Of a DNA stretch of 64,000 bases, positions 2,249 to 58,690 are shown piece after piece. Each line of letters begins with the position of its first letter. Positions within the stretch are counted from its first letter, which is position 1. A program made the position numbers and the translations under genes. Source of the DNA: Methanobacteriota archaeon (GTDB lineage: Archaea > Thermoplasmatota > DTKX01 > VGTL01); the NCBI GenBank assembly GCA_016874675.1, contig VGTL01000004.1:4949-68948 (forward strand). Reading direction: 5' to 3'. The notes below the pieces were generated by a model. It was given only the letters and a program-made list of their open reading frames with translations. It did not search any database and had not been told where the DNA came from.

Positions 2249-2395
2249 ACCGGGTGCCGGGTGCCGGGTGCCGGGTGGCGGGTGCCGGGTTCCGAGAGGT
2301 TACGGCCATTTCCCGGCCCCCGGCCCCCGACCCCCGGATTCGTCCCTGCCCCCGGCCCCCGGCCCCCGGATTCGTCCCTGCCCCCGGCCCCCGGC
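2249..2395. repeat. Family B palindromic heptamer element, (CCGGGTG)n...(CCCGGCC)n, with two CCGGATTCGTCCC cores
   Basis: Cores at 2334-2346 and 2366-2378 (32-bp period). Confidence 0.85.
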
Positions 2396-2449
2396 TTTCA
2401 CCAACCTCCCCAAAGGGCTTAAGTAGGCCCGCACGCGCTATCAATACCG

Positions 2450-3232
2450 ATGCTCCGCCGCTCCTTCGTCCTTCTTCGCGGCGTCGGCCGCCGGACCGAG
2501 AGGCACCTGCGCTCGCTCGGGGTCGTCGACTGGAAGGGGTTTCTGGCCGCGCCCCAGATAGCAGGCATCGGCAAGGCGCGCAAGGCGGCCCTGGACGCGC
2601 ACCTCAGGGCCCTGGACAGGTGCCTCGAGCGCGGCAACGCCGCCACCCTGGCACAAGCCCTTCCCCCCTCCGAGAAGTGGCGCCTGTACCCCGACTTCCG
2701 CGACCGGGCCGCCTTCCTCGATATTGAGACCACCGGCCTGGACCTTCCGGCCACCGTCACCGTCGTCGGCATCACGGTCGGGCGCGACCACACGCCCCTC
2801 GTGCGCGGCGTGAATCTTTCCAAGGCCGCCATAGAGCGCGCCCTGCGCCCGGCCAGGATCATCGTCACCTTCAACGGGAGCTCCTTCGACCTGCCCGCCC
2901 TGCGCATGGCGTTCCCCGGCCTCGAACTGGACCTGCCCCACATCGATTTGCGGCATCTTGCGCCCCGTGCCGGCATCCGGGGCGGGCTCAAGAAGGTGGA
3001 GCGCATCCTCGGGATCCGGCGGGCCAGGGAGGTCCGGATGCTCTGCTCCCACGACGCCGTGTACCTTTGGCGCATCTGGGAGCGCAAGCGGTCCGGCAAC
3101 GCCCTGCGCCTGCTCATCGACTACAACCGGGCCGACGTCGAGAACCTGCGGGCGGTGGCCGACGCGGTCGTGGACATAATGGCGAGGAAGAACGGATACC
3201 AAGAGGTGATTTCAGATGAAGGAAAATGCTAA
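2450..3232 (+). CDS. YprB-like RNase H-fold (DEDD) exonuclease domain protein
   Basis: AFLDIETTGL, TFNGSSFDLP, HIDL, GLKKVE, YNRADV motifs; N-terminal GVG..TE helix-hairpin-like segment. Confidence 0.8.
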   Translation: MLRRSFVLLRGVGRRTERHLRSLGVVDWKGFLAAPQIAGIGKARKAALDAHLRALDRCLERGNAATLAQALPPSEKWRLYPDFRDRAAFLDIETTGLDLPATVTVVGITVGRDHTPLVRGVNLSKAAIERALRPARIIVTFNGSSFDLPALRMAFPGLELDLPHIDLRHLAPRAGIRGGLKKVERILGIRRAREVRMLCSHDAVYLWRIWERKRSGNALRLLIDYNRADVENLRAVADAVVDIMARKNGYQEVISDEGKC

Positions 3233-3494
3233 CATTTATTTAATGCATACGTGCTATATAGCACCGTTGAAGAAAACCGAACCGAGCCCGGACCTGGACA
3301 CTCTGAACAGGGACCACGAGTGGCATTGCAACATGGACCTGGCCCCCTTCGCCGGCCAGTGGATAGCGGTGCTGGAGAAAAAGATCCTGGCCTCCGACAT
3401 GGACATCGAGGCCCTGATGAAGAAGCTCGAGACCCTGAAGCTCGCCCGGAAACCGCTCTTTTTCAAGGTGCCCGGTCATCCCATCGTGGGGTGA
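3216..3494 (+). CDS. DUF5678-like small protein
   Basis: FAGQWIAVLEKKILASD...PLFFKVP motif; true start may lie further downstream. Confidence 0.6.
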   Translation: MKENANIYLMHTCYIAPLKKTEPSPDLDTLNRDHEWHCNMDLAPFAGQWIAVLEKKILASDMDIEALMKKLETLKLARKPLFFKVPGHPIVG

Positions 3495-3500
3495 GGGCCT

Positions 3501-3630
3501 ATGCGTTCATATGCAGTCTCATTTGCCAAACTCAGTGCTCACCACGGGGCGATTCGAAGGTACCCGATGTTGCCAGTATCACTGACTGTCGCAGGGGCGG
3601 AAATGAATGTGAGCATGCTTCAGACCAATC
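3501..3630 (+). pseudogene. Probable truncated remnant of a retroviral-type aspartyl protease partner gene
   Basis: YPMLPVSLTV..EMNVSML resembles the N-terminus of such partners, but no D(T/S)G motif follows; lower GC. Confidence 0.3.
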
Positions 3631-3697
3631 GACCCTTTTGCCGGCTCCCCGATTGGCCCCCAAGCTTGCTGGCTTTTCCCGCGCCCGGCCCCCGGAT

Positions 3698-5391: not shown

Positions 5392-5478
5392 GCGGGAGGG
5401 ATGGCGGTCTTTGAATAAAAGCAATGTGGAGCCCCCGGGTTCTTATATCCCTTTCAGGAAATTCAACCCTTCTAATTC

Positions 5479-5594
5479 AAGGCGCAAGGCGCAGGGCGCA
5501 CGGCGCAAGGCCAAAGGCTCGAGGGATGAGGCGCAAGGAACAAGGGAGGAATCCACGGTCGTTGCCTTGCTCCTTCCGCCCTGCGCCCTGCGCC
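5479..5594. repeat. Family A palindromic heptamer element, (GGCGCAA/G)n...(C/TTGCGCC)n
   Basis: Tandem heptamers with an inverted right arm, between divergent genes. Confidence 0.8.
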
Positions 5595-7220: not shown

Positions 7221-7224
7221 AGGG

Positions 7225-7420
7225 AAGGCGCAGGGCGCAGGGCGCGAGGCGCAAGGGAAGGTACAGGGCGCAGGGCAGAGGGCGCAAGGGAATGCACAAG
7301 GGCCACGGCACAAGGGGCAGGGGTTTTTCGGGGAACGTACCCCATCAACAATCCCCCTCGATTCTTGCGCCTTCCCCCTTGCGCCTCAAGCCTTGCGCCC
7401 TGCGCCCTGCGCCTTGCCCC
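7225..7420. repeat. Family A palindromic heptamer element
   Basis: GGCGCAG/A arm, unique centre, TTGCGCC arm; between convergent genes. Confidence 0.85.
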
Positions 7421-7428
7421 TTCTCCCT

Positions 7429-11186: not shown

Positions 11187-11415
11187 TGCAACAGAGGGAA
11201 AGGGCAGCAAGGCAGCAGGGCAGCAAGGCAGCAAGGGAAGGCAGGAAGGCAGCAAGGCAGAAAGGCAGCAAGGCAGAAAGGGAGGCAGGAAGGCAGGAAG
11301 GGAGGAAGGCAGGAAGGGAGGCAACAAGGCAACAAGGGAGGAAGGCAGGATGGGTACGGGGATGCGTCCCTTGCTTCCCTCCTGCCCTGCTGCCTTCCTG
11401 CCTTGCTCCCCCTCC
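11187..11415. repeat. Family D palindromic octamer element, (GGCAGCAA/GGCAGGAA)n...(TTGCTGCC/TTCCTGCC)n
   Basis: Long purine arm and shorter inverted arm. Confidence 0.85.
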
Positions 11416-11416
11416 C

Positions 11417-12253: not shown

Positions 12254-12303
12254 ACGGCGCACCGGGAGATGCAACGGGGTGGGGAAATATGAAATTAATT
12301 GAG

Positions 12304-12435
12304 AAGGCGCATGGCGCGAGGGCCAGGGCGCAAGGAGCAAGCATTGGTCAGGGGATTCATCCCAAGGCCCTGCGCCCTGCGCCCTCCGCCTTGCGCCTTC
12401 TAGCCTTGCGCCTTGCGCCCTGCGCCCTGCGCCTT
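12304..12435. repeat. Family A element overlapping the 3' end of the S8 gene
   Basis: Heptamer arms; S8 stop at 12400-12402 lies inside the right arm. Confidence 0.85.
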
Positions 12436-14745
12436 CCTCCTGCGGTCCCAGAAGTAATAGGCCGCCCCCGCGGCGACGGCGGCGGCCAGGAGGCCCAGGA
12501 TGAGCGGCAGGTTGTCCGGCCTGACGACGGGCTTCGGCGGGGGCTTCTCCTCGACGAGCCGGCTGAAGTCGTAGAAGTGGCGCGGCAGCACCATCGTGAC
12601 AGTGCCGTTGGGGTCGAAGGGCCCGAACTGCCACTGGGCGTAGGCGGCGCGGAGGTCCACCTCCGGGACCCTGATCTCCCCGGAGCCCTGAAACATCGCC
12701 TGGATTCCCAGCGTGTAGTGGACCAGGACCTCGCGGAACTGGTTGAAGACGGGGTTGTCCTTGCCGATCACGGGGAGCTTGAAGTAGGTCCCCTCGACGT
12801 AGAAGTCGACCACGGAGCCGGCGCCCAGAGTGGAGGCCCCGACCTCGTCGTGCTTCCAGCCGGAGTGCTGCCAGCCGCCCTGGCCGCGCCAGTCCATCGA
12901 GCCGTCGCGGTTGGTGTCCACCGCCACGGTGAGCTCGCCGACGGCCTTCTCGCTGCCGATGATCGGGTCGTAGTTGAGGTCGATTATCAGGGTGCTGGCG
13001 TTCTGGGGGACGTACACGGAGCGGGCGTGGCTCGTCACGAGGGTGTTGCGCGCGTCGAGGAGGTACCCCCAGTCGCCCCTCCAGCTCGTCACGAGGCTGC
13101 TCGTGGGATACTTCACATCGCCCGTCTTGTGCAGTCCGCCGGAGCGCTTGAACGCCCGGAACGCCTCCATGACGGTGGCGCAGGCGTCGGCGCGGCGCAT
13201 CTCCTCGAGTACGAGGCTGACCTGGACCGCCCGGCTGGCGTTGATCAGGCCGTAGCCCTGGGCGAAGTCGTGGGGCCGCTCATCGAACTCGGCCGAGCCG
13301 GTGGAGTTGTTGGCGGGGACGCCGTTGCTCTCCGTCGAGGGCATGTAGTCGGAGGTGAGCTTGAGGACGTACTCCGCCTCGGTTATCCGCGTGTTCGGGT
13401 CGGCGTGCCAGGCCGCCTGGTCGCCGGCGTGCTCGGAGTGAACCTCGGAGATGCGCAGGCTGGGGCAGGCCTGCATCATCAGCGCCACGCAGCCGGAGAC
13501 GTGGGGCGTCGCCATGGAGGTGCCGCTGATGGACATGTAGTAGGCATCGACCCGGTCCTCCGGGTTCTGCTTGGTCATCGCGGTTATCTGCGTCCCGCGG
13601 GCCTCGGTGGCCCAGATGCGGACGCCCGGGGCCGCGATGTCGGGCCAGGTGTGGTTGAGGTCCGACTGTCCCCGGGAGCTGAACGAGGCCATCCCGTCGC
13701 CGTCGTGGAGGGCCGCCGCCACCTCGACCACGAAGGGGGCGTTGCCGTAGTTGCTGGTCTGGATGGTGCTTCCGTCCACCCCGCCCGAGTTCCCCGCGGC
13801 GAAGACCACGACCACGCCGTTCTCGAACACGAGCTTGCGGTTTATCTGGGTGATGGAGTCCGCCGGGTCGTACTCGCCGGGACCGGCGCCCCAGGAGTTG
13901 GAGCAAACGCGGATGTTGTCGGGGTTGTTGCCCGGCCGGCTGTGCTCGTAGACCCAGGTCAGGGCGCCCAGGACGTTCTGCAGCCAGTGCTCCCCGGTGG
14001 AGATGGAGACGAGCCGGGCCCCGGGCGCCACACCCCGCCGGGCGCCCGCCGAGGCGTCCCCGTTGCCCAGGATGGTCCCGGCGCAGTGCGTCCCGTGGCC
14101 CGAGCCGGTGTCGGAGTCCTGGACCTCGGTGTAGCTTTGGTCGAAGTCCGACTTGAGGTTGATTATCGTCTTGGAGCCGTAGTCCAGGTCGGGGTGGCCG
14201 GCGTCGCAGCCGGTGTCGACGAGGGCCACGGTGACGCCCGTGCCGTCTATCGGGTCCCTGCTGCCGCCGCCCTGGTACAGTATCTCCGAGTTCCAGACGG
14301 TGGTGGCGTTGATGGTGGTGGTGGTGCCGTTCATCAGGAGCTCCATCCTCTGGTTGTGCTCGATGTAGTAGGTGCCCGGGTGGGCAGAAAGCCACTGCAC
14401 CGCCTCCTTGGGGCCGACCGCGTAGACGGCGTCGAGGGGGGCGAACTCGCGCAGAATCCTCATGTTGAGGTTGGCCAGGAGCTGTCGGGTGCTGTCGCCG
14501 ACCGGGCGCTTGAACTGGATGACCGTCTCGAGGGTCCCGTATCGCGGCGTGCGGTCCATCACGGCCCGGAGGGTCTTGTCCATGACATCGGCCGGCTCGT
14601 ACCTTTGGACCGCCTTCGCCGGGGCGGCCGGGCGGGGCAGCTCCAGGGCCGAGGCCGGGAGCGCCAGGACGAGCAATGCGGCGCCCAGGGCGAACGCCGT
14701 CATTGATGTCCGCTGCCTGCCTCGTGGATGCCAGAGCGCGCCCAT
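12400..14745 (-). CDS. Membrane-anchored subtilisin-like S8 serine protease
   Basis: Catalytic VDTG / HGTHCAG / SGTSMATPH; signal peptide; C-terminal TM; alternative start at 14703. Confidence 0.9.
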   Translation of the reverse strand: MGALWHPRGRQRTSMTAFALGAALLVLALPASALELPRPAAPAKAVQRYEPADVMDKTLRAVMDRTPRYGTLETVIQFKRPVGDSTRQLLANLNMRILREFAPLDAVYAVGPKEAVQWLSAHPGTYYIEHNQRMELLMNGTTTTINATTVWNSEILYQGGGSRDPIDGTGVTVALVDTGCDAGHPDLDYGSKTIINLKSDFDQSYTEVQDSDTGSGHGTHCAGTILGNGDASAGARRGVAPGARLVSISTGEHWLQNVLGALTWVYEHSRPGNNPDNIRVCSNSWGAGPGEYDPADSITQINRKLVFENGVVVVFAAGNSGGVDGSTIQTSNYGNAPFVVEVAAALHDGDGMASFSSRGQSDLNHTWPDIAAPGVRIWATEARGTQITAMTKQNPEDRVDAYYMSISGTSMATPHVSGCVALMMQACPSLRISEVHSEHAGDQAAWHADPNTRITEAEYVLKLTSDYMPSTESNGVPANNSTGSAEFDERPHDFAQGYGLINASRAVQVSLVLEEMRRADACATVMEAFRAFKRSGGLHKTGDVKYPTSSLVTSWRGDWGYLLDARNTLVTSHARSVYVPQNASTLIIDLNYDPIIGSEKAVGELTVAVDTNRDGSMDWRGQGGWQHSGWKHDEVGASTLGAGSVVDFYVEGTYFKLPVIGKDNPVFNQFREVLVHYTLGIQAMFQGSGEIRVPEVDLRAAYAQWQFGPFDPNGTVTMVLPRHFYDFSRLVEEKPPPKPVVRPDNLPLILGLLAAAVAAGAAYYFWDRRRKAQGAGRKAQG

Positions 14746-14826
14746 CCCGTATCCCTGTCCCCTTTGCCCTATTGGGAGGTCCTATCGTGCATTCTTTACT
14801 AATAATTATTGGTAGGTCAATAGGAT

Positions 14827-15011
14827 GCAGGGCGCAGGGCGCAGGGCGCAAGGCAAGGGACGAGGGCGCAAGGGGCAAGGCGCAAGGCGCGAGGGTGGAT
14901 TGGCTGCAATCGGGAAGCCATTTTCCCACACGCCCTTCCTTGAGCCTTGATCCTTCGGCCTTGTGCCGTCCGCCCTCGTCCCTTGCGCCTTGCGCCATGT
15001 GCCTTGCGCCC
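14827..15011. repeat. Family A palindromic element
   Basis: Heptamer arms flanking a unique centre, between divergent genes. Confidence 0.85.
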
Positions 15012-15046
15012 TCATGTTTATTATCCAACCGACCCAATCACCCGCC

Positions 15047-16327
15047 GTGAGAATCCTCCAGCTCTGTACCCGCTTCCCGCCGGCGCCGGGAGGGGTCGAG
15101 ACCCACGTCCTGGAGATATCCAGGAGGATGCGGCTTGCCGGGCACGAGGTTTCGGTGCTCACCTCGGACCTCTATTCGGAGACGCCGCTCGTACGCATGG
15201 AGAAGTGGGAGCGGGAGGTGGAGGGCGTTCCCGTCCGGCGCTTCCGCGCCTACACGCCCGGCGGGGAGGCTCACTACCTGGTCTACCCGTCCATGAAGGC
15301 GGCGCTCATGAAGGCCCCGGCCGAGGTCGTCCACGCCCACTCCTACGGCTACTTCCAGACCAACCTCCTGCCCCTCGTCCGCAAGCTCCGGCGGCTGCCG
15401 ACGGTCCTCACGGCCCACTTCCACCCCGACTGGTCCACCTGGGGCGGGGAGAAGCGCCGGGGGCTGCGCAAGGTATACGATTCAACGCTGGGGAAGGCCG
15501 TGCTCAACAACGTCGATATAGTAATAGCCCACACGCGAGAGGAGATCGGGCTCATGGAGCAGGTCGGGCTGGACACCTCCGGCAACCGGGTCAGGATCGT
15601 CCCGGCCGGCATAGACTTCGCAAAGTACGAGAGGGTCCCGGACGGGGCGCCCTTCCGGGAGCGTTTCGGCATCGGCCAGGACGAGATGGTCGTGCTCTTC
15701 TCTGGCCGGCTGGCCCAGAACAAGGGGCTGGCGGTGCTTGCAGAGGCCGCGCCGGAGGTGCTCCGGTCCTTCCCGCGCGCGCGCTTCGTGCTCGTCGGGC
15801 AGGACATGGGCGTGCGGGAAAAGCTCGAAAAACGGCTGGGGGAGCTCGGCGTCCGGGACCGGTTCCTGTTCACCGGGCATCTAGATGACGATGCCCTGTT
15901 CCGGTCGGCCTACGGCGCCTGCGACGTGTTCGTGCTGCCATCGGAGTACGAGGCGTTCGGGCTCGTCCTGCTGGAGGCGATGGCGTCCGAGAAACCCGTC
16001 GTGGCCAGTGCAGTCGGGGGGATGCCGGAGGTTCTGGGTGCCGGGAGCCGGGTGCCGGGTGCCGGGACGAATCCGGGTGCGGGGGGCAGGGGGCAGGGGG
16101 CCGGACGGAAAGGGGCGGAAGGGACCGTCACGGCGACCGAGTGCGGCCTGCTGGTGGGGTACGAGGACCGGAAGGCGCTGGCGGAGGCCATCTGCCGGCT
16201 TCTCGGCGACGACGGCATGCGGCGGAGGATGGGGGCGGCCGGGCGCGAGCGCGCCCGCCGGGAGTTCAACTGGGACAGCGTCACGGGGCGGATAATCGAT
16301 ATATACCGGGAACTTTCGGGGCATTGA
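15047..16327 (+). CDS. GT4-family glycosyltransferase carrying an in-frame repeat insertion
   Basis: RILQL..RFPPAPGGVE, VHAHS, GRLAQNKG, VLPSEYEAFGLVLLEAMA; GTG start. Confidence 0.9.
   Translation: MRILQLCTRFPPAPGGVETHVLEISRRMRLAGHEVSVLTSDLYSETPLVRMEKWEREVEGVPVRRFRAYTPGGEAHYLVYPSMKAALMKAPAEVVHAHSYGYFQTNLLPLVRKLRRLPTVLTAHFHPDWSTWGGEKRRGLRKVYDSTLGKAVLNNVDIVIAHTREEIGLMEQVGLDTSGNRVRIVPAGIDFAKYERVPDGAPFRERFGIGQDEMVVLFSGRLAQNKGLAVLAEAAPEVLRSFPRARFVLVGQDMGVREKLEKRLGELGVRDRFLFTGHLDDDALFRSAYGACDVFVLPSEYEAFGLVLLEAMASEKPVVASAVGGMPEVLGAGSRVPGAGTNPGAGGRGQGAGRKGAEGTVTATECGLLVGYEDRKALAEAICRLLGDDGMRRRMGAAGRERARREFNWDSVTGRIIDIYRELSGH
16036..16104. repeat. Family B half-element inside the glycosyltransferase CDS
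   Basis: (CCGGGTG/AG)n plus GGGACGAATCCGG core at 16064-16076. Confidence 0.8.
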
Positions 16328-17962: not shown

Positions 17963-18245
17963 CGCGCAAGGCGCAAGGCGCAAGGCGCGAGGCGCGAGGC
18001 GCAAGGCGCAAGGCGCAAGGGGCCGGAGCGGGGCAGCAAGGGATAATGGGAGCAAGGGAGAAAGGGAGAAAGGCAGCAAGGGGAGGGCCATCCACCCCTT
18101 CTGCCTCCGTAGGCGAGCTTCGCTCGCCTAGGCCGAGAAGGCCGCCGCAGCGGTCTTCTACGGTGCTCCCTTGCTGCCTTGCTGCCTTGCTGCCTTGCTG
18201 CCTTGCTGCCTTGCTGCCTTGCTCCCTTGCTGCCTTGCTGCCTTC
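17963..18245. repeat. Composite A+D element enclosing a structured core (18103-18166)
   Basis: GGCGCAA arm, GGCAGCAA arm, core, then (TTGCTGCC)n. Confidence 0.85.
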
Positions 18246-18344
18246 TGCCCACAGCAAATGGTAGGTACCACGCCACCATTATAAACCAGGAGCGACAGAG
18301 CCGTCCCCGATGTGCCAGGCGGGGAGGACGGCGGACGGGGTTTC

Positions 18345-18460
18345 GGGCAGGGTGCGGGGTGCAGGGGAAGGGGCAGCGGGCAGCGGCCAGCAGGGAGCGG
18401 GGAAGAAATGACGCCCGTCGTCCACCGCTCCCCGCTGCCCGCTCCCCGCTCCCCTTCCCC
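18345..18460. repeat. Family C element, (GGGCAGC)n...(GCTGCCC/GCTCCCC)n
   Basis: Inverted heptamer arms; right arm lies inside the next CDS if its ATG at 18408 is used. Confidence 0.7.
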
Positions 18461-23606: not shown

Positions 23607-23607
23607 G

Positions 23608-38396: not shown

Positions 38397-38560
38397 CTAT
38401 CGGACATCCAGGACGCGTGTGTCGAACGGCTCCCCAGTCCGGAAGACCCTGGCGAGCTCCCGCACGAGGGCCTTGTACCCTTCATTGCTCATGCCCGCCT
38501 TCATCCGAGAGGAGACCGCCACCTGGGCCCCGCGCTTTTGGCGCGACGTGCGGTCGTTAC
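38397..38560 (-). pseudogene. Degenerate paralogous remnant, copy 2
   Basis: ...RMKAGMSNEGYKALVRELARVFRTGEPFDTRVL* aligns with the 36792 remnant. Confidence 0.4.
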
Positions 38561-38744
38561 CGGACCCGTCCTTCGGGCCGGCTCCGGGAAGGCGGTGGCC
38601 TCCTCTCGGGTGAGACAGCTCTTCTCCTTCAGGTCCGGCAAGGCTCCCGCCGGACGGTCAAACGTCTCCGGGCCTGATCAGCCTTCCCCTCGACGGGCGG
38701 CAGGCTTATCCGCCCCGGCGGGAATATGGAACCCGGGCCCCGGC

Positions 38745-39068
38745 ATGAAATCCAAATCCATCCCGATACTCCTTTTTATTGGGGCGACCCTGCTGATATC
38801 CGGCGCGGTCGCGTTCGTCGCGATGGAGCGGCGGCTCGCCACGGTCAATGACGGGATCGCGGGCCTCACGCCGACGGGCGCCGGGGATGGCTGGTCCGAC
38901 CGGCTCGACGACCTGACCATGGAGCGGGATCTTCTGGCCGGGCAGATTCCCTGGGCGCTCGCGGCAATATGCATCGGCGGGACCTGCCTGGCGGCCGGGG
39001 GCCTGCTCAAACTGAGAGAACGAAAAACCGGCCGAGGGCGCTCCATGTCCGCCGGGCACGACCCGTGA
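38745..39068 (+). CDS. Small two-TM hypothetical protein
   Basis: MKSKSIPILLFIGATLLISG... and a second TM WALAAICIGGTCLAAGGLL. Confidence 0.55.
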   Translation: MKSKSIPILLFIGATLLISGAVAFVAMERRLATVNDGIAGLTPTGAGDGWSDRLDDLTMERDLLAGQIPWALAAICIGGTCLAAGGLLKLRERKTGRGRSMSAGHDP

Positions 39069-39146
39069 TCGCCGCCTGTCCGTTGGCCTGGCCTCCGCCT
39101 CTATGTTTATCTACCCCCAGACGAATGGAGATGACCGGAAACCGAA

Positions 39147-39530
39147 TTGAAGGAGCAGGAGCAGAACTGGGCCAAGCAGGGCCGGCGCGAGCTCGAAAGC
39201 GCCAAAAAGGCGCTCGCCGCAGAAGACCATTACCTCGTGGCCTATCTGAGCCACCAGGCGGTCGAGAAATTGCTCAAGGCGCTCATCCTGCACATCCACC
39301 TGGAGCCGCCGCCGCACACCCACTCGCTCCTGCGCCTCGGCTCGCTGGTCAAGGTGCCCTCGGAACACGAGGGGCGCCTCAGGGAACTGACGCCGCACTA
39401 CATGCTGTCGAGATATCCGGATGCCTCGGGAGAACCGCCCTACGAACTCTACACCCGTGCGAAGGCCGAGACGATATTGAAGGACGCCGTGGAGGTGATC
39501 GCGTGGATCGAGAAACAGCTCAGGCAATGA
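39147..39530 (+). CDS. HEPN domain protein
   Basis: HQAVEKLLKA, THSL..L, SRYPD; TTG start. Confidence 0.85.
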   Translation: MKEQEQNWAKQGRRELESAKKALAAEDHYLVAYLSHQAVEKLLKALILHIHLEPPPHTHSLLRLGSLVKVPSEHEGRLRELTPHYMLSRYPDASGEPPYELYTRAKAETILKDAVEVIAWIEKQLRQ

Positions 39531-39820
39531 GCCGCCTCCTCGCCGCGCTCAAAGTGAAGTATGCAATCACGAAGGCCATAGTCTTCGGCAGCCGCGCCCG
39601 GGGCGACCACCACCGCCATTCCGACTTGGACATCGTGCTGGTCTCGCCGGATTTCGGGGCCCTCCCATTCATAGACCGCCCGGCCGAGATTCTGAGGTAC
39701 TGGGAGGGCGACTGGGACCTGGAGCCCCTCTGCTACACGCCGGAGGAGTACGAGCGCCTGCGCGGCATGATGGGCATCCTGACCGTCGCGGAGCGCGAGG
39801 GCGAGGTGCTGGCGGTCTGA
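39527..39820 (+). CDS. Minimal nucleotidyltransferase (MNT)
   Basis: FGSRARG...SDLDIVLVS..F; ATGA overlap with the HEPN gene. Confidence 0.85.
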   Translation: MSRLLAALKVKYAITKAIVFGSRARGDHHRHSDLDIVLVSPDFGALPFIDRPAEILRYWEGDWDLEPLCYTPEEYERLRGMMGILTVAEREGEVLAV

Positions 39821-39831: not shown

Positions 39832-39923
39832 CCCTTGCGCCCTGCGCCCTGCGCTAGCCCCCCGGGCTGAAGTCCGGGGTCTCCCTTGCTCCCTTGCTGC
39901 CTTTCTGCCTTGCTGCCCTCTTC
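39832..39923. repeat. Partial A and D arms
   Basis: TTGCGCCCTGCGCC and TTGCTGCC runs between convergent genes. Confidence 0.6.
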
Positions 39924-40866: not shown

Positions 40867-40948
40867 TGAGTTGCCTCGGACCGATTAAATCGACTCATTG
40901 GATATAAAGCTTGTCCGGTCATGACCGAAAGTGGGGCACCGCCAGGAA

Positions 40949-41068
40949 AGGGCAGCGGGCGGAGGGCAGCGGGCAGCAGGGGGGCATCGGGCATCGGGCA
41001 GCGGGAGCGATGGACGACGGGACCCGTTTCGTCACCGCTGCCCGCTGCCCGCTGCCCGCTGCCTTTCC
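40949..41068. repeat. Family C palindromic element
   Basis: (GGGCAGC)n ... (CCGCTGC)n. Confidence 0.8.
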
Positions 41069-41138
41069 TTCCACCACCTTCACCCACCCCCCCGCAAGCC
41101 TGATTATCACGATGGCGCATCGCTCTCCGGGGATCCCG

Positions 41139-42950: not shown

Positions 42951-42957
42951 GAACGAA

Positions 42958-43152
42958 GGGGCAAGGCGCAAGGCGCAGGGCGCAAGGCTTGAGGTGCGAG
43001 GAACAAGGCACGAGGAAAAAGGGAGCAGAACTGGAAACTCTCCATGGCCGTTGCCCGTTGTTCCTTCGGTATTGCGCCCTATGCCTCCCCCTCTCCCTTG
43101 CGCCATGCGCCTTGCCCCTTCCCTTGCGCCTTGCGCCATGCGCCTTGCGCCA
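42958..43152. repeat. Family A palindromic element
   Basis: GGCGCAA arm and (TTGCGCC/ATGCGCC)n arm. Confidence 0.8.
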
Positions 43153-43218
43153 TGATTGAACCCATTCGCAACCTTCTTATCGCCCGTCGGGCTTACTATC
43201 CCCGTGGTCCTGCCGGGG

Positions 43219-44447: not shown

Positions 44448-45236
44448 ATGGACAAACGGGCGGTGGTCCTGCTCTCCGGCGGGATGGACTCCGCCACGGC
44501 GGCGGCGGTCGCCCGCTCCAACGGCTTCGAGCTGTACGCCCTCACGTTCGACTACGGGCAGAGGCACAGGAAGGAGCTTTGGTGCGCGCGCGCCCTGGCC
44601 CGCTTCTTCAAGGCCCGGGAGCACCGGGTCCTCAGAATCGGATTGGGGAAGCTCGGGGGCTCGGCCCTCACGGACCGGGCCATCGAGGTGCCGGACGCCG
44701 GCGGCGGCTGGACCGGCGGAAGGCCCATCCCGGCGACCTACGTCCCGGCGCGCAACCTCGTGCTGCTGTCCTTCGCCGCGGCCTACGCCGAGACTGTCGG
44801 CGCGGGAACGGTCTTCATCGGCGCCAACGCGGTCGACTACTCGGGCTACCCCGACTGCCGTTCGGAGTTCCTGCGCGCGTTCGAGGAGGCGGCCCGGCTG
44901 GGCACAAAATGCGGCGTCTCAGGCCGGCCGCTGCGGGTCGAGGCGCCGCTCCTGCGCCTCTCGAAGGCGCAGGTAGTCCGCCTGGGCGCCTCCTTGCTCG
45001 TCCCGTTCGACCTCACCTGGAGCTGCTACCGGGGAGGGAAGCGCCCGTGCAGGAGGTGCGACTCGTGCCATCTGAGGGCGAAGGGGTTCGAGGAGGCGGG
45101 GATGGTCGATCCAGTTCTCGAGGAAGGCTCGGGGCGCAAGGCGCAAGGCGCGAGGGACGAGGGCGCAAGGCGCAAGGCGCAAGGTGCGAAGGCGCAAGGG
45201 GGAAGGCGCAAGGGGCAAGGGGGAATGCGGCGATGA
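44448..45236 (+). CDS. queC: 7-cyano-7-deazaguanine synthase with repeat-derived C-terminal tail
   Basis: LLSGGMDS, YGQRH, TYVPARN, YSGYPDCR, TWSCY, C..CDSC. Confidence 0.95.
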   Translation: MDKRAVVLLSGGMDSATAAAVARSNGFELYALTFDYGQRHRKELWCARALARFFKAREHRVLRIGLGKLGGSALTDRAIEVPDAGGGWTGGRPIPATYVPARNLVLLSFAAAYAETVGAGTVFIGANAVDYSGYPDCRSEFLRAFEEAARLGTKCGVSGRPLRVEAPLLRLSKAQVVRLGASLLVPFDLTWSCYRGGKRPCRRCDSCHLRAKGFEEAGMVDPVLEEGSGRKAQGARDEGARRKAQGAKAQGGRRKGQGGMRR

Positions 45237-45320
45237 CCACGGCCCGTCTCCCCCCCTTGTCCCTTGCGCCTTCCCCCTTGCGCCTTCGCACCTTGCGCCT
45301 CGCGCCTTGCGCCTTGCCCC
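45128..45320. repeat. Family A palindromic element at the queC/queE junction
   Basis: Left arm is read in the queC frame; right arm is intergenic. Confidence 0.85.
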
Positions 45321-45345
45321 CTCATTTCGATCGGAGGCGCCGTCC

Positions 45346-47055: not shown

Positions 47056-47078
47056 CATTGCTGTGGATTAACTGCGAA

Positions 47079-47240
47079 AAGGCAGGAAGGCAGGAAGGCA
47101 GCAAGGCAGCAAGGGGGGCAGGAAGGCAGCAAGGCAGGAAGGCAGCAAGGCAGGAAGGGGGACGGGATCCAGCGTTCCAGCCCCCCGTCCCCTTCCTGCC
47201 TTGCTCCCTTTCTGCCCCCCTGCCTCCCTTCCTGCCTTGC
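47079..47240. repeat. Family D palindromic element
   Basis: GGCAG(G/C)AA arm, centre with CAGCGTTCC, inverted arm. Confidence 0.85.
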
Positions 47241-47302
47241 TCCATCGTTATTGAAAAAACTATATCTATTCGTTAATACATGACAACCATTAGTTAACAA
47301 CC

Positions 47303-53776: not shown

Positions 53777-55450
53777 GTGGCCCGCATGTGCGGCAAGTTC
53801 CTGATAGAGCAGGTGGAGGAGGAGAAGCAGCAGAGGGCGCGGGACGAGGCGCGGCGGCCCGCCCTCCGGCAGCGCCTCGAGCACTGGCGCTCCCGCGGCT
53901 ACGAGGTCTCCGGCCTGGCCCGGGCCGTCGAGGGCGACGTGCCCTCGGCCGAGCGGGCGATGGCGGAGTTCGAGACCGGCGTCCGGAGGCTCGCGGACGC
54001 CCAGGTCAGGCTCAACGCGCTGGACGTGATGGGGTTCCCCGGAGAGGTGCTGGCCATCCGCCAGAGGCTCGCCGACCCCGGGCGGGCCGCCGAGGCCGAA
54101 ATACTCCTGGCCGAGCTCGCCGACAAGATAAAGGCAAGGAAGGAGGAGGAGCGGAGGAGGCGCCACGAGGAGGCGCTGAAGGAGAAGGCCGCCAGGATGG
54201 CCTCCTACCGCCAGCGCGTCGCCGCCTGGTCCGAGAAGGGCTACTCCGTGAAGCGGCTGGACGGGCTGCTCGACGACCCCGAATCCGACAGCGTCACCAT
54301 CGAAAAGAGGCTCTCGGAGTATGACCGGGACGTCCAGCGGCTCCTGGAGCTTCGCAGGGCGCTCGACGGCGTGCGGGCGGTCGCCACGGAGGCCGAGCTC
54401 GCAGAGGCCGAAAGGGAGCTCTCCGATCCCGACGCCCTGGCCCCGCTCCACGCCCGGGTGGACTCCCTCTCGGAGAGGTTCTACCAGAAGAAGTCCGAGG
54501 ACCAAAAGCGCGCCGCCCTCCGGGCCCGCCTGGAGGAGTACCGGCAGAAGGGCTACAAGGTGGCCCGGCTCGAGGGCGCTCCCGACCGGCCGCTCCCGGA
54601 GGCCGAGGCCGCCTTCGCCTCCTACGACCGGGACGTGGGCGCCCTCTTCGGTCTCTGGGACCGGCTCCGGGCGCTGGACCGCTCGCTCTTCCCCGACGAG
54701 TGGGAGGCGGCGCGCGGCCGGATGAACGACCCCGGCCAGGTGGAGGAGGTCCGCAAGGCGGTGGAGGCGCTCGAGCGGAGGCAGGCCGCCGAATCCGGGC
54801 GCCGGGCCGAGGAGGACCGCCGGCTCGCGCTGGAGGCCAAGCAGTTCGTCGCCGGCGTGTTCGAGAAGATGAGGGCCGGGGCCCCCGACTACAACCCGCT
54901 CGGGTTCTACACGAGGGAGGCCCGCTGGGAGCCGCACCTTGCGCCCGACGGGATGTTCGCCAAGGGCGAGGCGCGCTCGGGGCTCATCTCGAAGAGCGCG
55001 GCCGTGGTGGCGTGCGGTTTCGCGCCGTCGCTCCAGAAGCAGGCCGTGATGAACGAGGCCGAGTCGGCGCGCTCGTCGGAGCAGTTCGTCGCCCACTGCT
55101 TCGTGATGAATCGGGTGGCGCCGGAGCTCGCCTCGATGGCGCGCGCTTTTTCGCACCCCAACCTGTCGATATACATACGCGACCTGGCCGCCGGCGAGCT
55201 CGTGTTCAACGCCGAGGACCCCAAGACCCGGGCCTACTCCGAGTGGTTCGTCCCGGCGGCGCCCGTCTCGGGCATGAAGGGGGCGGTGAGGGCCGTCTCC
55301 GACCGCCACGGTATATTCACCCGGGCCGTCCTGCAGGAGATGCTCGGCCTCCAGCCGCGCGAGGCCGACGAGCTCATCCGGGTGTGGACCGGGCGCAACG
55401 AGGTCGTCCAGGTGAGCAAGATACGGGACGAGTACTCCTTCATGGACTGA
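53777..55450 (+). CDS. Helical-repeat protein with a C-terminal alpha/beta domain and putative winged helix
   Basis: Three (W/Y)xxxGYxVxxL repeats; C-terminal FTRAVLQEMLGLQPREADELIRVW. Confidence 0.75.
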   Translation: MARMCGKFLIEQVEEEKQQRARDEARRPALRQRLEHWRSRGYEVSGLARAVEGDVPSAERAMAEFETGVRRLADAQVRLNALDVMGFPGEVLAIRQRLADPGRAAEAEILLAELADKIKARKEEERRRRHEEALKEKAARMASYRQRVAAWSEKGYSVKRLDGLLDDPESDSVTIEKRLSEYDRDVQRLLELRRALDGVRAVATEAELAEAERELSDPDALAPLHARVDSLSERFYQKKSEDQKRAALRARLEEYRQKGYKVARLEGAPDRPLPEAEAAFASYDRDVGALFGLWDRLRALDRSLFPDEWEAARGRMNDPGQVEEVRKAVEALERRQAAESGRRAEEDRRLALEAKQFVAGVFEKMRAGAPDYNPLGFYTREARWEPHLAPDGMFAKGEARSGLISKSAAVVACGFAPSLQKQAVMNEAESARSSEQFVAHCFVMNRVAPELASMARAFSHPNLSIYIRDLAAGELVFNAEDPKTRAYSEWFVPAAPVSGMKGAVRAVSDRHGIFTRAVLQEMLGLQPREADELIRVWTGRNEVVQVSKIRDEYSFMD

Positions 55451-55459
55451 GGGTAAACC

Positions 55460-55466
55460 TTTATAA
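55460..55466 (+). promoter_or_regulatory. TATA-like box for the ESCRT-III/Vps4 pair
   Basis: TTTATAA in the short intergenic gap; SD-like GGGAGG before the ATG. Confidence 0.45.
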
Positions 55467-55504
55467 CCGCCCAATACCTATCATCCCTCAAGGGAGGCCC
55501 CACG

Positions 55505-56062
55505 ATGATAGACCTTTTCAAAAAGAAGCTGTCACCGCAGGAACTGGTAACCAAGATATCGATTTCCGAAAAGAAGCTCGAGAAGCGGGAGGCCCAGATA
55601 AAGGAGAAGCGCGACCGGGCCCGCGAGGACGCCAAGAACGCCCTCAAGAACGGCGACGAGCGGGGCTTCCGGGTGGCCTCCAAGCAGTACGGCTCCGCCG
55701 CGGGCCAGATGAACACCGTGGGCTCCATGCTCGAGATGTCGTCCACCATGCGCAACGCCCTCCAGGACCAGGAGAGCCTCACCGAGATAGTGGAGATAGG
55801 CAAGGACCTCGCCACGGCCCAGAAGGCGATGGGCTTCGACAGCCAGAAGATGGAGGCGGCAATCACCGCGATACGGACCTCGGTTGAGAAGGTTACCGCG
55901 ACCTCCGAGCTCCTCTCCACGCAGATGGAGACCCTCACCTCGCCCGAGTCGACCCGCGAGCAGGAGTCGCTCAAGTCCGAGCTCCTGGCCGAGCTCAAGA
56001 GCGAGGCCGGGACGGAGGGCGCCCTCGAGGAGAAGATCCGCAAGGAGAAGGAGAAGGCGTAG
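55505..56062 (+). CDS. ESCRT-III (Snf7/CdvB-like) protein
   Basis: 185 aa all-helical; basic N-half and acidic C-half; KNALKNGDE hairpin turn; MIM1-like end; adjacent to a MIT-AAA gene. Confidence 0.7.
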   Translation: MIDLFKKKLSPQELVTKISISEKKLEKREAQIKEKRDRAREDAKNALKNGDERGFRVASKQYGSAAGQMNTVGSMLEMSSTMRNALQDQESLTEIVEIGKDLATAQKAMGFDSQKMEAAITAIRTSVEKVTATSELLSTQMETLTSPESTREQESLKSELLAELKSEAGTEGALEEKIRKEKEKA

Positions 56063-56103
56063 GCGGCCCCCGCCCCCCGAAGTGACCGCCCGGGTGCTTG
56101 CAT

Positions 56104-57312
56104 ATGGGAGCCGCCGACAATTTCGTCGCCGAGGGGAAGGCCTACGCCACCGCCGCCCGCAGGAAGGAGGAGGCGGGCGAGAAGGAGGCCGCCCGCGACC
56201 TCTACCTCCAGGCGGCCGAATCCTACCTGAACGCGTCGAAGGCCTCCTCCGACAAGGACGAGAAGGAGTTCCGGGCCAACATGGCCCAGACGTTCTACGG
56301 GAAGGCGGTCTCCATGCGGCCGCAGGCCCGCCGCGCCCAAAGCAGCGGCGGCCCGGGCGACGGCGGGGCCGACGAGGAGAAGCTCCGGGAGGTCGTCCCG
56401 ATAGAAAAGCCCAACATCAACTTCGCCAACGTGGGAGGGCTGGACGCGGTGAAGGAGGAGATCCGCAAGGCGATAGTGTACCCCTTCCGGCACCCCGAGA
56501 TATTCGAACTCTACGGAAAGCGCGCCGGCGAGGGCATACTGCTCTACGGGCCGCCGGGCTGCGGCAAGACCTTCATCGCCCGCGCCGCCGCGGGCGAGTG
56601 CAACGCCAACTTCCTCACAATGACCATCAGCGAGATACTGAGCAAGTGGGTTGGCGACAGCGAGCGCAACGTGCGCGCCGCCTTCGAGAGCGCCCGGAAG
56701 TACGCCCCGGCGATACTGTTCTTCGACGAGATAGACGCCGTCGGCGGCCGCCGCGACGAGGCGCGGGAGGGCTACGCCAAGCGGCTCGTGAACGAGATGC
56801 TCATCAACCTCGACGGCGTGCAGGGCCCGCTCGAGAAGGTCCTGGTCCTTGCGGGTACCAACTCCCCCTGGGACGTCGACCCGGCCCTGCGCCGGCCCGG
56901 CCGCTTCAGCAAGCTCGTGTTCGTCCCGCCCCCCGACCGGGTCTCCCGGGCCCAGATACTGAGGATCCACATGAAGGAGCGCCCCATCGACCCGTCCGTG
57001 GACATCGACGAGCTTTCGGCGCGCACCGACGGCTTCTCCTCTGCGGACCTGGCCCAGATATGCATCGAGGCCGCCGACGCGCCCCTCATGGAGGCACTTT
57101 CGGGAAAACAGCCGCGCAAGATAAACCGCGACGACTTCATGTCCGTCCTCCAAAAGCGCGGCTCGTCGCTCTACCCGTGGTTCAAGCTCGCCCGCCAGGA
57201 GATCGAGCACTCCGGCGAGCAGGAGATATTCTCCGAGCTCCTCAAGTCCATCGACTACCACCTTGCGAAACTGCCCCCCTCTCCGGGGGCGACGATGAGG
57301 GAGCGGGCGTAA
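56104..57312 (+). CDS. Vps4/CdvC-like AAA+ ATPase with N-terminal MIT domain
   Basis: MIT-like three-helix segment (ARDLYLQAAESYL..A); GPPGCGKT, SKWVGDSE, FFDEID, DPALRRPGRF. Confidence 0.85.
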   Translation: MGAADNFVAEGKAYATAARRKEEAGEKEAARDLYLQAAESYLNASKASSDKDEKEFRANMAQTFYGKAVSMRPQARRAQSSGGPGDGGADEEKLREVVPIEKPNINFANVGGLDAVKEEIRKAIVYPFRHPEIFELYGKRAGEGILLYGPPGCGKTFIARAAAGECNANFLTMTISEILSKWVGDSERNVRAAFESARKYAPAILFFDEIDAVGGRRDEAREGYAKRLVNEMLINLDGVQGPLEKVLVLAGTNSPWDVDPALRRPGRFSKLVFVPPPDRVSRAQILRIHMKERPIDPSVDIDELSARTDGFSSADLAQICIEAADAPLMEALSGKQPRKINRDDFMSVLQKRGSSLYPWFKLARQEIEHSGEQEIFSELLKSIDYHLAKLPPSPGATMRERA

Positions 57313-57317
57313 CCGGA

Positions 57318-57580
57318 CAAGGCAGCAAGGCAGGAAGGCAGGAAGGCAGCAAGGGAAGGCAGGAAGGCAGGAAGGCAGCAAGGGAAGGCAGGAAGGCAGC
57401 AAGGCAGGAAGGCAGGAAGGGGGCAAGGTGGGCCGGAACGCTGCGTTCGAGCCTCCCGCTCCCTTCCTGCCTTCCTGCCTTGCTGCCTTCCCTTCCTGCC
57501 TTGCTGCCTTGCTGCCTTCCCGCCTTGCTGCCTTCCCGCCTTGCTGCCTTCCCTTCCTGCCTTTCTCCCTTCCTGCCCCT
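57318..57580. repeat. Family D palindromic element
   Basis: Long GGCAG(G/C)AA arm and a mirror arm; between convergent genes. Confidence 0.9.
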
Positions 57581-57598
57581 TCACAGACCGCAAAGCGC

Positions 57599-58360
57599 TC
57601 AACGATACATCCCGGCGGGCGCCTGGTCGATGTCCAGGGGGTTCTGGTGGCCGGCGAGGGCCGGCTGGATCTTGGCCAGGGCGGCGCGTATCTCAATCTC
57701 CATCTTCTCGGCCTCGGCGTAGAGGGGCCGGGTGTCGAGCTGGATCTGGGGCAGGACGGCGTCGATGGTCTCGACGATCCTGGCCGCGGCGCGGGCGTCG
57801 GGATAGGTCTCGTGGGCGTCGGCGATGACGCACAGGACGTCCCGGTCCAGGCGCAGCCCCTCGTTGAGCAGCACCCCCGAGATGCCGGTGATGATGCCCT
57901 CGTTGAGGGGCGGGATCTTTTTCTCGCCCAGGAGGCCGCGGCCCTTCTGGGTGCTCGCCACCCCGTACACCTTGATCTCCTCCGGGTGCTGCCCGGTCTC
58001 CTGCACCGGGAGCCCCTCGGCCGAGATTATGAGCTCGCAGCCGTTCTCAGCCGTCCACGACAGGATGTTGTCCACGATGGGCTTGACGAGCCCGGCCGGC
58101 GGCCGGAACTCGGAGATGAAGACCACGACGCGCCGGTCCCCGTGGATGCGCACCGGGTGGTTGGGCATGCCGTCGCGTATTATCGACGTGACCGGCAGCT
58201 GGCCCGATATCATGCACCCTATCTTGGGGAGCTTGAGCTGCTCGATAATGTAGTTGGCGGCGAGCGTGCTCACCAGCCCCACGCTGGGGAACCCCTCGAT
58301 GACCGCCGCTCCCTTCAGGTCGACCTTCTGCTTCATGAACACCTCGATGCCATCGTCCAT
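57599..58360 (-). CDS. PAC2-family proteasome assembly chaperone
   Basis: EGFPSVGLVSTLAANYI, GISGVLL, YPDARAAA, DTRPL..EAE..E. Confidence 0.88.
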   Translation of the reverse strand: MDDGIEVFMKQKVDLKGAAVIEGFPSVGLVSTLAANYIIEQLKLPKIGCMISGQLPVTSIIRDGMPNHPVRIHGDRRVVVFISEFRPPAGLVKPIVDNILSWTAENGCELIISAEGLPVQETGQHPEEIKVYGVASTQKGRGLLGEKKIPPLNEGIITGISGVLLNEGLRLDRDVLCVIADAHETYPDARAAARIVETIDAVLPQIQLDTRPLYAEAEKMEIEIRAALAKIQPALAGHQNPLDIDQAPAGMYR

Positions 58361-58380
58361 TGTACAGCCCCCTTGATCAC

Positions 58381-58690
58381 GGCGCAAGGCGCAAGGCGCA
58401 AGGCGCAAGGCGCGAGGCGCAAGGGGCGAAGGATTAAGGGTCAAGGGTCAAGGGTCAAGGGTCAAGGGTCGAGGGTCGAGGGAGGACGGATGCCCGTCCG
58501 TCCCTTGACCCGTGCCCCTCGCCCCTTCGTCCCTTGCGCCTTGCGCCTTGCGCCCTGCCCCTTGCGCCTCCGTAGACGACCTTCGGTCGTCTCGGCCTAA
58601 AAGACCGGCCCGTGGCCGGTCTTTCACGGTCGTCCCCTGCGCCTTGCGCCTTGCGCCCTGCCCCTTGCGCCTTGCGCCCTGCGCCTTCGT
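58381..58690. repeat. Composite family A and (GGGTCAA)n element with a structured core (58566-58630)
   Basis: GGCGCAA and GGGTCAA runs, inverted arms and the second copy of the 18103 core. Confidence 0.85.

Follow-up and report, generated by a model that had tools for sequence, protein, structure and literature searches.

The non-coding DNA of a 64-kb stretch from an uncultured lake archaeon (contig VGTL01000004.1, positions 4,949 to 68,948; hereafter the window) is crowded with palindromic elements made of short tandem repeats. The best reading of these elements is that they are non-autonomous palindromes, each consisting of an array of 7-9-nt units and its complement, and that they are not genes, a classical transposon family or one RNA family. 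At a probability of roughly 0.5, we consider them to be foldback microsatellites that arose around a gene-boundary hairpin, through slippage and the templating of one arm by the other; recombination would have spread them locally, and most would simply be tolerated. No description of such elements in archaea was found. They are far denser than the repeats of Xanthomonas and cyanobacteria that they resemble, and they turn over quickly between related genomes.

Occurrence and authenticity of the arrays

Arrays were called with Tandem Repeats Finder on the window, which has a GC content of 67%. The program returned 30 rows of period 7 and 15 rows of period 8, which included all sites named in a preliminary description of this DNA and a few more. 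Rows of period 7-9 numbered 47, compared with 0 in five shuffles that kept the local composition. After merging, 43 arms with a total of 2,529 nt were obtained. Arrays covered 2,264 nt of the 8,720 non-coding nt (26%) but only 265 nt of approximately 55 kb of coding DNA (0.5%); the split was based on gene calls from GC at the third codon position, checked with Pfam, in which gene starts are estimates. The window contains 20 elements, 4 in convergent, 5 in divergent and 11 in tandem gene context. The preliminary description had claimed a dense system of about 20 elements in all three contexts, and this claim held.

We further examined whether the arrays were genuine DNA. The two largest palindromes, E57 and E58, were recovered from three other lake samples (JGI), each independently assembled and of the same strain; E57 showed no difference from the window, and E58 showed one apex substitution in one of the three samples. 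In Logan contigs, unique flanks reached approximately 80 nt into both arms of E23 in 4 of 4 runs and then broke inside the arrays, as expected of repeats. An artefact of short-read metagenome assembly might be suspected from these breaks, which Logan unitigs also showed, and from arrays longer than a read, whose unit counts cannot be verified. We regard it as scarcely credible, given the three concordant assemblies, the continuity from flank to arm, the like architecture in JGI, ENA, NCBI and Logan assemblies of relatives, and the several arrays that stay in frame within genes. These results confirmed that the arrays are genuine DNA and not assembly noise, with unit counts in the longest pure arrays needing long reads to verify. 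Scanning of viral contigs for array words gave only sporadic, unrelated, low-GC contigs and no viral link.

The genes identified by Pfam in the window included those for RadA, diphthamide synthase, an AcnX-type mevalonate operon, ESCRT-III/Vps4, PAC2, PFOR and QueC/QueE. Apart from PFOR and QueC/QueE, these genes support an archaeal host, as do relatives labelled as Thermoplasmata metagenome-assembled genomes.

Organization, polarity and predicted folding

The units of family A are AAGGCGC and AGGGCGC, that of family B is GGGTGCC (the same as CCGGGTG), that of family C is GGGCAGC, and those of family D are AAGGCAGC and AAGGCAGG. All four families, which had been proposed earlier, are real, and AAGGGAGC and AAGGGTC are present in addition. 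Read on either strand, an element begins with a 5' purine/G-rich array of 7-8-nt units, continues through a short apex and ends with the complementary 3' array. The purine arm came first in all 15 true adjacent arm pairs of the window and in every pair of the relatives (5:0). The single pair in the window with the C-rich arm before the G-rich arm was the seam of two successive palindromes. The strict polarity, with a 5' purine arm and a 3' pyrimidine arm, is real, in agreement with the layout originally described. Where families were nested, A units lay outside and D or AAGGGTC units inside, and the order A-D-core-D'-A' noted earlier for two sites was verified at 23607-23866 and 27680-27920.

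All 19 elements that were folded were predicted to form hairpins across the apex, with z-scores ranging from -3.4 to -24. The largest predicted stems contained 108-112 base pairs, with a minimum free energy (MFE) of about -215 kcal/mol. At 15 gene 3' ends, the purine arm started 0-19 nt past the stop codon or overlapped it, while on promoter sides the pyrimidine arm ended short of the TATA-like box. The main units (AAGGCGC, AAGGCAGC and AAGGCAGG) carry GG runs only and no tracts of three G; G3 runs at 7-8-nt spacing were found in families B and C and in the variants AGGGCGC, AAGGGAGC and AAGGGTC.

The elements of the window are as follows, with the strand given where one applies; R and Y denote purine and pyrimidine arms, ORF an open reading frame, and L038 and L049 related genomes.

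E02, 2250-2395: G-rich (GGGTGCC)n arm followed by a C-rich arm (CCCCCGG / 32-mer), in a divergent gap; MFE -88, z -3.4
E05, 5478-5594: family A palindrome in a divergent gap, with T6 after the Y arm
E07, 7221-7428: family A palindrome that takes up the whole of a convergent gap between two stop codons; MFE -128, z -6.4
E11, 11195-11416: family D, with a long R arm and a short Y arm, adjoining the stop codon of the PPK2 gene (minus strand)
E12, 12300-12436: small family A palindrome; the Y arm overlaps the 3' end of the S8 peptidase gene (minus strand) and encodes a tail ending in RRRKAQGAGRKAQG and the stop
E14, 14826-15012: family A palindrome between divergent promoters, with TATA-like boxes outside both arms; MFE -131
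In-gene arrays, 16036-16101, plus strand: G-rich heptamers (GGGTGCC, GGGGGCA) in frame in the GT4 glycosyltransferase gene, encoding a G/A/R-rich loop
E18a, 17963-18255: A units outside, D units inside and a two-hairpin module (18100-18163) in the centre, beginning at a stop codon; MFE -194, z -15
E18b, 18340-18460: family C (GGGCAGC / GGGGAGC) palindrome with CGTCGTCC in the apex
E23, 23607-23866: nested A-D-apex-D'-A' reaching from one stop codon to the other; apex GGGACGGCCGTCGTCCC, 108 base pairs predicted; MFE -215, z -21
E25, 25520-25600: small family B palindrome (CCGGGAG ... ACCCGGC), 12 nt past the stop codon of a BirA-like ORF
E27, 27680-27920: inverted whole-element copy of E23, missing from the orthologous gap of L049
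E31, 31555-31722, plus strand: family A palindrome in frame in the HAD hydrolase ORF, between a conserved N-terminal helix and the catalytic FDLDGT
E32, 32806-32925: family D palindrome from the stop codon onward, with the apex of E23; a D-family palindrome also lies in the orthologous gap of L049
E39, 39834-39921: pyrimidine arms only (A' then D') around a small CCCGGG hairpin, at the RadA 3' end beside a HEPN/nucleotidyltransferase islet
E40, 40940-41075: family C (GGGCAGC) palindrome in the divergent gap upstream of RadA, with GGACGACGG in the apex
E42, 42951-43155: family A palindrome from the AKR stop codon to the next ORF, whose ATG sits in the last Y unit; missing from L038
E45, 45125-45325: family A, with arms mirrored variant by variant; the R arm encodes the C-terminal tail of QueC; MFE -174, z -24
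E47, 47075-47245: family D palindrome upstream of the conserved promoter of a helix-turn-helix (HTH) gene; the orthologous palindrome of L038 consists of GGTAAACC units
E57, 57313-57585: family D palindrome with 110 cross-apex pairs, in the convergent Vps4/PAC2 gap; MFE -212
E58, 58378-58690: A units, AAGGGTC units, apex, Y arm, two-hairpin module (58568-58634) and a second Y arm; MFE -226

Slippage, arm mirroring and copying between loci

E23 and E27 differed by two indels, each of exactly 16 nt, that is, two units. In one related species represented by assemblies from two samples (L033 and L034), the difference was one 18-nt unit. Slippage in the number of whole units has thus occurred. The order of unit variants was mirrored between the two arms in 9 of 13 elements, beating at least 97% of unit-order shuffles. 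Both observations fit the combination of slippage and hairpin templating that had been put forward as one possible mechanism in the preliminary description.

E27 was the reverse complement of the entire E23 over approximately 245 nt with approximately 95% identity, at a distance of 4 kb. The match spanned arm-specific variant orders that are not palindromic themselves, and E27 was missing at the orthologous tRNA-Met/MVK gap of L049. These results showed that one whole element was copied to a second locus in inverted orientation. E23, E27 and E32 all lie within 9 kb, and the 17-nt apex GGGACGGCCGTCGTCCC is common to the three. No target duplication was visible for E23 and E27, the sole pair of full copies, whose ends merge gradually into outer units that vary. 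An inversion between E23 and E27 was ruled out by reasoning, since the resulting chimeras would be direct and not inverted.

The copy number of the elements was estimated from the depth of 31-mers. Words spanning an apex or junction had a depth of 28-110 against a single-copy depth of 28 (98% likeness), corresponding to approximately 1-4 copies per genome equivalent. Words from pure arrays had depths up to 630, or at least 20 copies per genome equivalent. The low copy number of composite elements argues against a transposon-like burst. Pfam detected no transposase, HUH or reverse transcriptase domain among the ORFs of the 64 kb, and likewise no REP-associated tyrosine transposase (RAYT). Among the genes of the window, no support was thus found for the trans-acting enzyme suggested earlier as the alternative mechanism.

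Orthologous gaps in related genomes

Graded relatives were taken from a protein search and contig look-ups, and a metagenome contig scan with PAC2 gave one relative. At approximately 80% PAC2 identity, gene order was kept for at least 34 kb. The neighbouring promoters and genes were conserved, and the orthologous gaps carried palindromes of unrelated units or none. The palindromes of relatives were built of GGTAAACC, GTTAACAG/GTTGACAA, GCGGGCAAT and GGGAAGC units; one gap with units of the GGTAAACC, GTTAACAG and GTTGACAA type, which have no G runs, had a GC content of only 40%. The following gaps were compared.

HTH/M29 gap: D-unit palindrome in the window; GGTAAACC palindrome beside the conserved promoter in the relative
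Vps4/PAC2 gap: hairpin in the window; hairpin in 6 of 6 genomes compared, with five unrelated unit types
AKR junction (E42): palindrome in the window; none in L038, where the two ORFs overlap as TGAATG
UppS/PAC2 gap (E58): palindrome in the window; none in five relatives
unk642/UppS gap and the gap between HflX and the next ORF: empty in the window; palindrome in the relative
E32 orthologue: family D in the window and in L049

The comparison of orthologous gaps, proposed at the outset as a check, showed loci that are not static. The notion that family D is restricted to the window lineage was dropped because of the palindrome in L049. PAC2 identity marked the limits of the distribution: genomes at 73% or above carried arrays, those at 69% and 47% had none, and neither did 27 distant loci. 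A contig scan with AcnX retrieved distant relatives only (at most 69% identity), none of which had arrays; it serves as a negative control. Unit indels between copies and between populations, the copying of one element, and gain, loss and replacement at orthologous gaps support the view that the arrays are dynamic and still changing, as had been supposed.

Apex motif and embedded two-hairpin module

The apex motif GGACGG..CCGTCGTCC was kept despite differing arms and recurred in relatives whatever the units of the arms. The octamer CGTCGTCC was found at five apexes of the window in either orientation, and 13 times in the window as a whole. It also occurred at apexes in L033, L028 and L049, and as the complement GGACGAC in L038 and L047, so that both orientations were represented.

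Two elements, E18a and E58, contain a conserved module of approximately 65 nt (18100-18163 and 58568-58634, respectively). CCGTAG comes first, then a 7-bp stem closed by a TTCG loop, then a second hairpin and finally CTACGG, and the predicted fold resembles a three-way junction. Further copies were found in relatives (L038, 16735-16815, minus strand; L047, approximately 1800-1865), and compensatory changes were seen in the stems of a third copy, from a relative. Every copy of the module is embedded in a pyrimidine arm or adjoins one, always with the same relative orientation, and at the same gap the module was present in L047 and not in L033. An Rfam search of the module gave no match, and tRNA-Met was the only Rfam match obtained.

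Short hairpins of the form CCCGG(R)CT..(Y)CCGGG were also recurrent. They were seen at the centre of E39 (39855-39885) and in relatives, including three in one gap of L033 (740-1004).

Elements in genes, operon junctions and leaders

The HAD-IB hydrolase gene of the mevalonate operon (31491-32426) has in-frame starts only at GTG 31491 or 31506, which overlap the AcnX stop codon. The catalytic FDLDGT lies downstream of the E31 palindrome, and source gene callers give a 311-aa protein. In relatives, the N-terminal helix VIDKAVLxALR is shared and the linker after it varies in length, and one relative carried a different in-frame palindrome, made of GGGAAGC units, at the same position. The R arm of E31 translates into GKAKGAGREAQGARAQGSGRKAQGA and the Y arm into PVAPCPSPLAPSSPAPCASRPAPS. 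Because the unit of E31 is 7 nt long, slippage by a single unit would shift the frame, and may possibly act as an on/off switch for the hydrolase.

Other arrays within ORFs run in the purine sense; QueC, the S8 protease and the GT4 glycosyltransferase owe K/A/Q/G/R-rich tails or loops to them. The repeat-encoded C-terminal tail of QueC (44448-45236) was 27 aa longer than in L038. The S8 protease is membrane-anchored, and its cytoplasmic tail is repeat-encoded (12400-12450, minus strand).

E42 and E45 lie in tight operon junctions that lack a promoter. At E42, the start codon of the next ORF inside the last repeat unit leaves no room for one, and the Y arm of E45 ends 20 nt before the Shine-Dalgarno-led start of QueE. 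E58 appears to sit between the conserved AAAGTACAWWA promoter box of PAC2 and the start codon, namely in the 5' leader. Five elements lie between divergent promoters. The presence of E31 in an ORF, E42 and E45 in operon junctions and E58 in a leader indicates that the elements are not obligate terminators, and argues against the general role in termination that the preliminary description had considered. Sense and antisense RNAs were compared by folding, and neither a sense-strand advantage nor a bias with gene context was observed. RNA-level selection on the sense strand was dropped because fold energies of the plus and minus strands were unbiased by gene context.

The Vps4/PAC2 gap behaved differently in that a hairpin was kept. 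T-rich tracts flanked the small versions in relatives: the hairpin is followed by T4 in L046 and by T5 in L048, and in L033 it is preceded by A6 and followed by T3. The large window elements had no T-run past the 3' arm. The retention of the hairpin and the A/T tracts around its small versions suggest that a gene-end hairpin may have been the functional seed from which arrays grew.

Comparison with known repeat systems

The elements had previously been likened to the short tandemly repeated repetitive (STRR) heptamers of heterocystous cyanobacteria. The sequences of STRR1-3 presumably differ from the units described here, and the host here is archaeal. As an analogy STRR remains fair, but the closest published parallel is a different one, the inverted GGGAATC heptamer pairs of Xanthomonas (PMC4692102). 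X. campestris and X. axonopodis carry (GGGAATC)n and Nostoc carries GGGGA(C/T)T repeats (Rehm et al. 2015, PMC4692102). In Xanthomonas, 70-75 heptamer pairs per genome converge on opposite strands as inverted repeats. Their G-rich strand is the coding strand just past stop codons, with some overlap, and the non-coding strand just before start codons; their length varies between close relatives, and their function is unknown (PMC4692102).

As in those pairs, the arrays described here are dispersed, intergenic and G-rich with 7-nt tandem units, two arrays on opposite strands form an inverted repeat, and polarity follows the genes, with purine arms 0-19 nt past or overlapping stop codons and pyrimidine arms before promoters. 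In contrast to them, most units here cannot form G3 quadruplexes, the host is an archaeon, and several families of 7-9-nt units coexist and are nested in one element. Arms here are as long as 110 bp and arrays account for 26% of the non-coding DNA; in addition, the apex motif is conserved and a two-hairpin module is embedded in some elements. Copying of a whole element and palindromes inside ORFs are also documented here.

TAACTGA direct repeats occur in Beggiatoaceae, Cyanobacteria and Bacteroidetes (MacGregor 2015, PMC4679880), with 169 direct sets against one indirect set in BOGUAY (PMC4679880). STRR and TAACTGA repeats share with the present arrays an abundance of intergenic heptamer tandem repeats, an unknown origin and a lineage-specific distribution. 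However, they are mostly direct and short, lie mainly just upstream of start codons and use one fixed unit, whereas the arrays here are paired as palindromes and belong to many families.

Repetitive extragenic palindromic (REP) sequences and bacterial interspersed mosaic elements (BIMEs) are GTAG- or CGTC-tagged extragenic palindromes of bacteria (PMC3733652), for which roles in mRNA stabilization, termination and supercoiling have been proposed. They too lie at gene ends and at times within genes or operons, and head-to-head REP dimers form large hairpins. The embedded module likewise starts with GTAG and a hairpin (7-bp stem, TTCG loop), and the apex contains CGTC. REPs are, however, 20-40-bp units with fixed stems of 5-13 bp in many near-identical copies, often associated with a RAYT. 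Here tandem arrays of variable length make up the stems, which reach 110 bp, composite copies are few, and no RAYT was detected by Pfam among the window ORFs. The eukaryotic Foldback elements (Drosophila FB, Galileo and Tetris; PMC4079207, PMC3573991) resemble the present ones in having long inverted arms of tandem subrepeats, variable arm length and little or no interior. They differ in being kilobase-scale, eukaryotic, mobilized by a transposase and flanked by target duplications, none of which was found here. Both REP/BIME and the Foldback elements have no more than isolated features in common with the present elements. The low-copy E23 and E27 also lack the defined termini, target-site duplication and high copy number of miniature inverted-repeat or foldback transposons. 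A survey of prokaryotic satellites put most archaea below 4 per Mb (PMC6749651), compared with approximately 670 arms per Mb in the window under a definition that differs from that of the survey.

Origin of the elements

The foldback-microsatellite reading can be set out as follows. A gene-boundary hairpin, short and GC-rich and often of the type GGACGG..loop..CCGTCGTCC, would serve as the seed. Replication slippage beside this hairpin would account for the observed gain and loss of whole units. The mirrored arms would result from copying of one arm from the other, by intrastrand template switching or by repair of a processed hairpin or cruciform tip. Elements or their interiors, of which one inverted copy was seen, would then be copied to a nearby gap that already bears arrays, in either orientation, with the shared outer units as homology for homologous recombination. 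Such spread would lead to unit families shared within a genome and to units replaced at orthologous gaps between related genomes. Arrays would expand until they meet a selected feature, such as a stop codon or promoter, and would at times run on into linkers or the ends of ORFs, with the purine arm then encoding K/A/Q/G/R-rich tails that do no harm. The majority of copies are probably passengers that are tolerated, and copies at convergent gene ends probably still act as the hairpin of a bidirectional transcript-end signal.

Several points weigh against this explanation. Genome-wide sharing of unit families through recombination alone is a step that we infer. The conservation of the apex motif across genomes with unrelated arms is suggestive of a recognized site, and the hairpin in 6 of 6 genomes at Vps4/PAC2 points to selection of the structure at least at that site. 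The purine-first polarity is predicted by no proposed mechanism, and an unrecognized directional enzyme or a transcription-linked process may be needed. Polarity is the main observation left without explanation, both by the foldback-microsatellite reading and by all of its rivals.

A rather doubtful but substantial alternative is that the elements are selected gene-boundary elements, whose hairpins would act as bidirectional terminators, insulators or stabilizers of mRNA 3' ends, comparable to enterobacterial REP/BIME, and whose tandem-repeat build would merely make the stem tolerant of indels. The arrays at or overlapping 15 gene 3' ends would be expected on this account, as would the Vps4/PAC2 hairpin, kept while its sequence was replaced, and the T-rich flanks of its small versions, which resemble intrinsic-type terminators. 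Given the polarity, the 3' arm of the hairpin would also contain U in transcripts of either direction, and in Xanthomonas the starts or ends of transcripts coincide with comparable repeats more frequently than with control repeats (PMC4692102). However, five elements lie between divergent promoters, where mRNA should not end, and E31 in an ORF, E42 and E45 in promoter-less junctions and E58 between promoter box and start codon fit the idea poorly. Presence was not conserved at most orthologous gaps, sense RNA folded no better than antisense, and a T-run was missing after the 3' arm of the large window elements. Regulation of neighbouring genes through G-quadruplex, i-motif or histone-positioning signals in G-rich arrays, as proposed for Xanthomonas and Nostoc heptamers, seems highly improbable. 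Families B and C and the units AGGGCGC, AAGGGAGC and AAGGGTC do have G3 runs at 7-8-nt spacing, and comparable repeats form G-quadruplexes in vitro (PMC4692102). But the commonest units, AAGGCGC, AAGGCAGC and AAGGCAGG, have GG runs only, and relatives use GGTAAACC, GTTAACAG and GTTGACAA without G runs in a gap of 40% GC, so that quadruplex potential is not common to the class.

Mobilization in trans appears unlikely. Here the elements would be foldback or REP-like, and a putative clade-specific enzyme recognizing the apex GGACGG..CCGTCGTCC or the GTAG-tagged hairpin of the module would insert or extend them, in the manner proposed for RAYT with REPs and for transposases with eukaryotic Foldback elements. 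Such an enzyme would be consistent with an apex motif conserved amid unrelated arms in either orientation, the inverted copying of a whole element to a new site, the clean presence or absence of whole palindromes at E42, E27 and E58, and a distribution confined to a subclade. CTGA adjoins E23 and E27 at the same end, and the module opens with CCGTAG and a hairpin, like GTAG-tagged REPs (PMC3733652). Nevertheless, composite copies numbered only 1-4 per genome equivalent, neither target-site duplications nor fixed termini were found, element length and unit make-up varied widely, and no candidate enzyme was found in the 64 kb. The location of E23, E27 and E32 within 9 kb points to local recombination rather than transposition. 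We also consider, as a speculation that is distinctly unlikely, that the apex hairpin GGACGG..CCGTCGTCC is the working site of a clade-specific DNA process, in which the tip would be opened, the purine-rich 3' ends extended by telomere-like addition of units and the ends rejoined. Arrays would then grow symmetrically from the apex outwards. If true, this would explain the polarity, the mirrored variant order, the nested unit families and why relatives have the architecture rather than the sequence in common. It would represent an undescribed prokaryotic route for generating DNA, and might explain the same polarity in bacterial heptamer hairpins.

Neighbouring features of the window

A possible inserted islet at 37006-39820 contains an AAA_14/DUF4143 ATPase gene and the HEPN/nucleotidyltransferase pair (39147-39820), together with a 100-nt stretch of extreme AT-richness (38290-38375). 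E39, next to it, has pyrimidine arms only, as if the insertion of the islet took away the other arm. At 23867-25508, a long minus-strand ORF call (469 aa) has an aspartate dehydrogenase domain at residues 202-455 only, and the plus-strand ORF at 24591-25508, whose stop codon is followed by E25, ends like the C-terminal domain of a biotin-protein ligase. The true layout is probably a short nadX gene and a BirA-like gene.

The block at 53777-57312 contains an ESCRT-III-like gene (55505-56062), a Vps4-like AAA ATPase gene (56104-57312) and, upstream, a gene for a 557-aa protein without a Pfam match. Its gene order was kept in every relative of the clade that was fetched. Another type of repeat was found at 578-735 (and 745-790). 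It comprises two copies of the 13-mer GGTTCGGGGGACG followed by three copies of the complement CGTCCCCCGAACC, each at 26-nt spacing with variable 13-nt spacers, and then an A9 run and the perfect GC palindrome GCGGCGCGCCGGCCGGCCGGCGCGCCGC. Judged by their arrangement, these repeats look like iterated protein-binding sites (similar to origin recognition boxes or iterons) rather than a microsatellite.

Significance

Prokaryotic heptamer microsatellites have been on record for decades, but neither a mechanism nor a function has been assigned to them, and this lineage represents an extreme natural case. Comparisons can draw on close relatives both with arrays and without them, and gains, losses, unit replacement, the copying of one whole element and in-frame invasions of genes are all visible. 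The non-coding repeats supply low-complexity tails or linkers to housekeeping proteins, namely QueC, the S8 protease, the glycosyltransferase and the HAD hydrolase. The material makes it possible to test the cause of the strand polarity, the templating of one arm by the other and the existence of an enzyme that recognizes the apex, as well as how much long, perfect-stem hairpin DNA a compact archaeal genome tolerates in its operons and ORFs.

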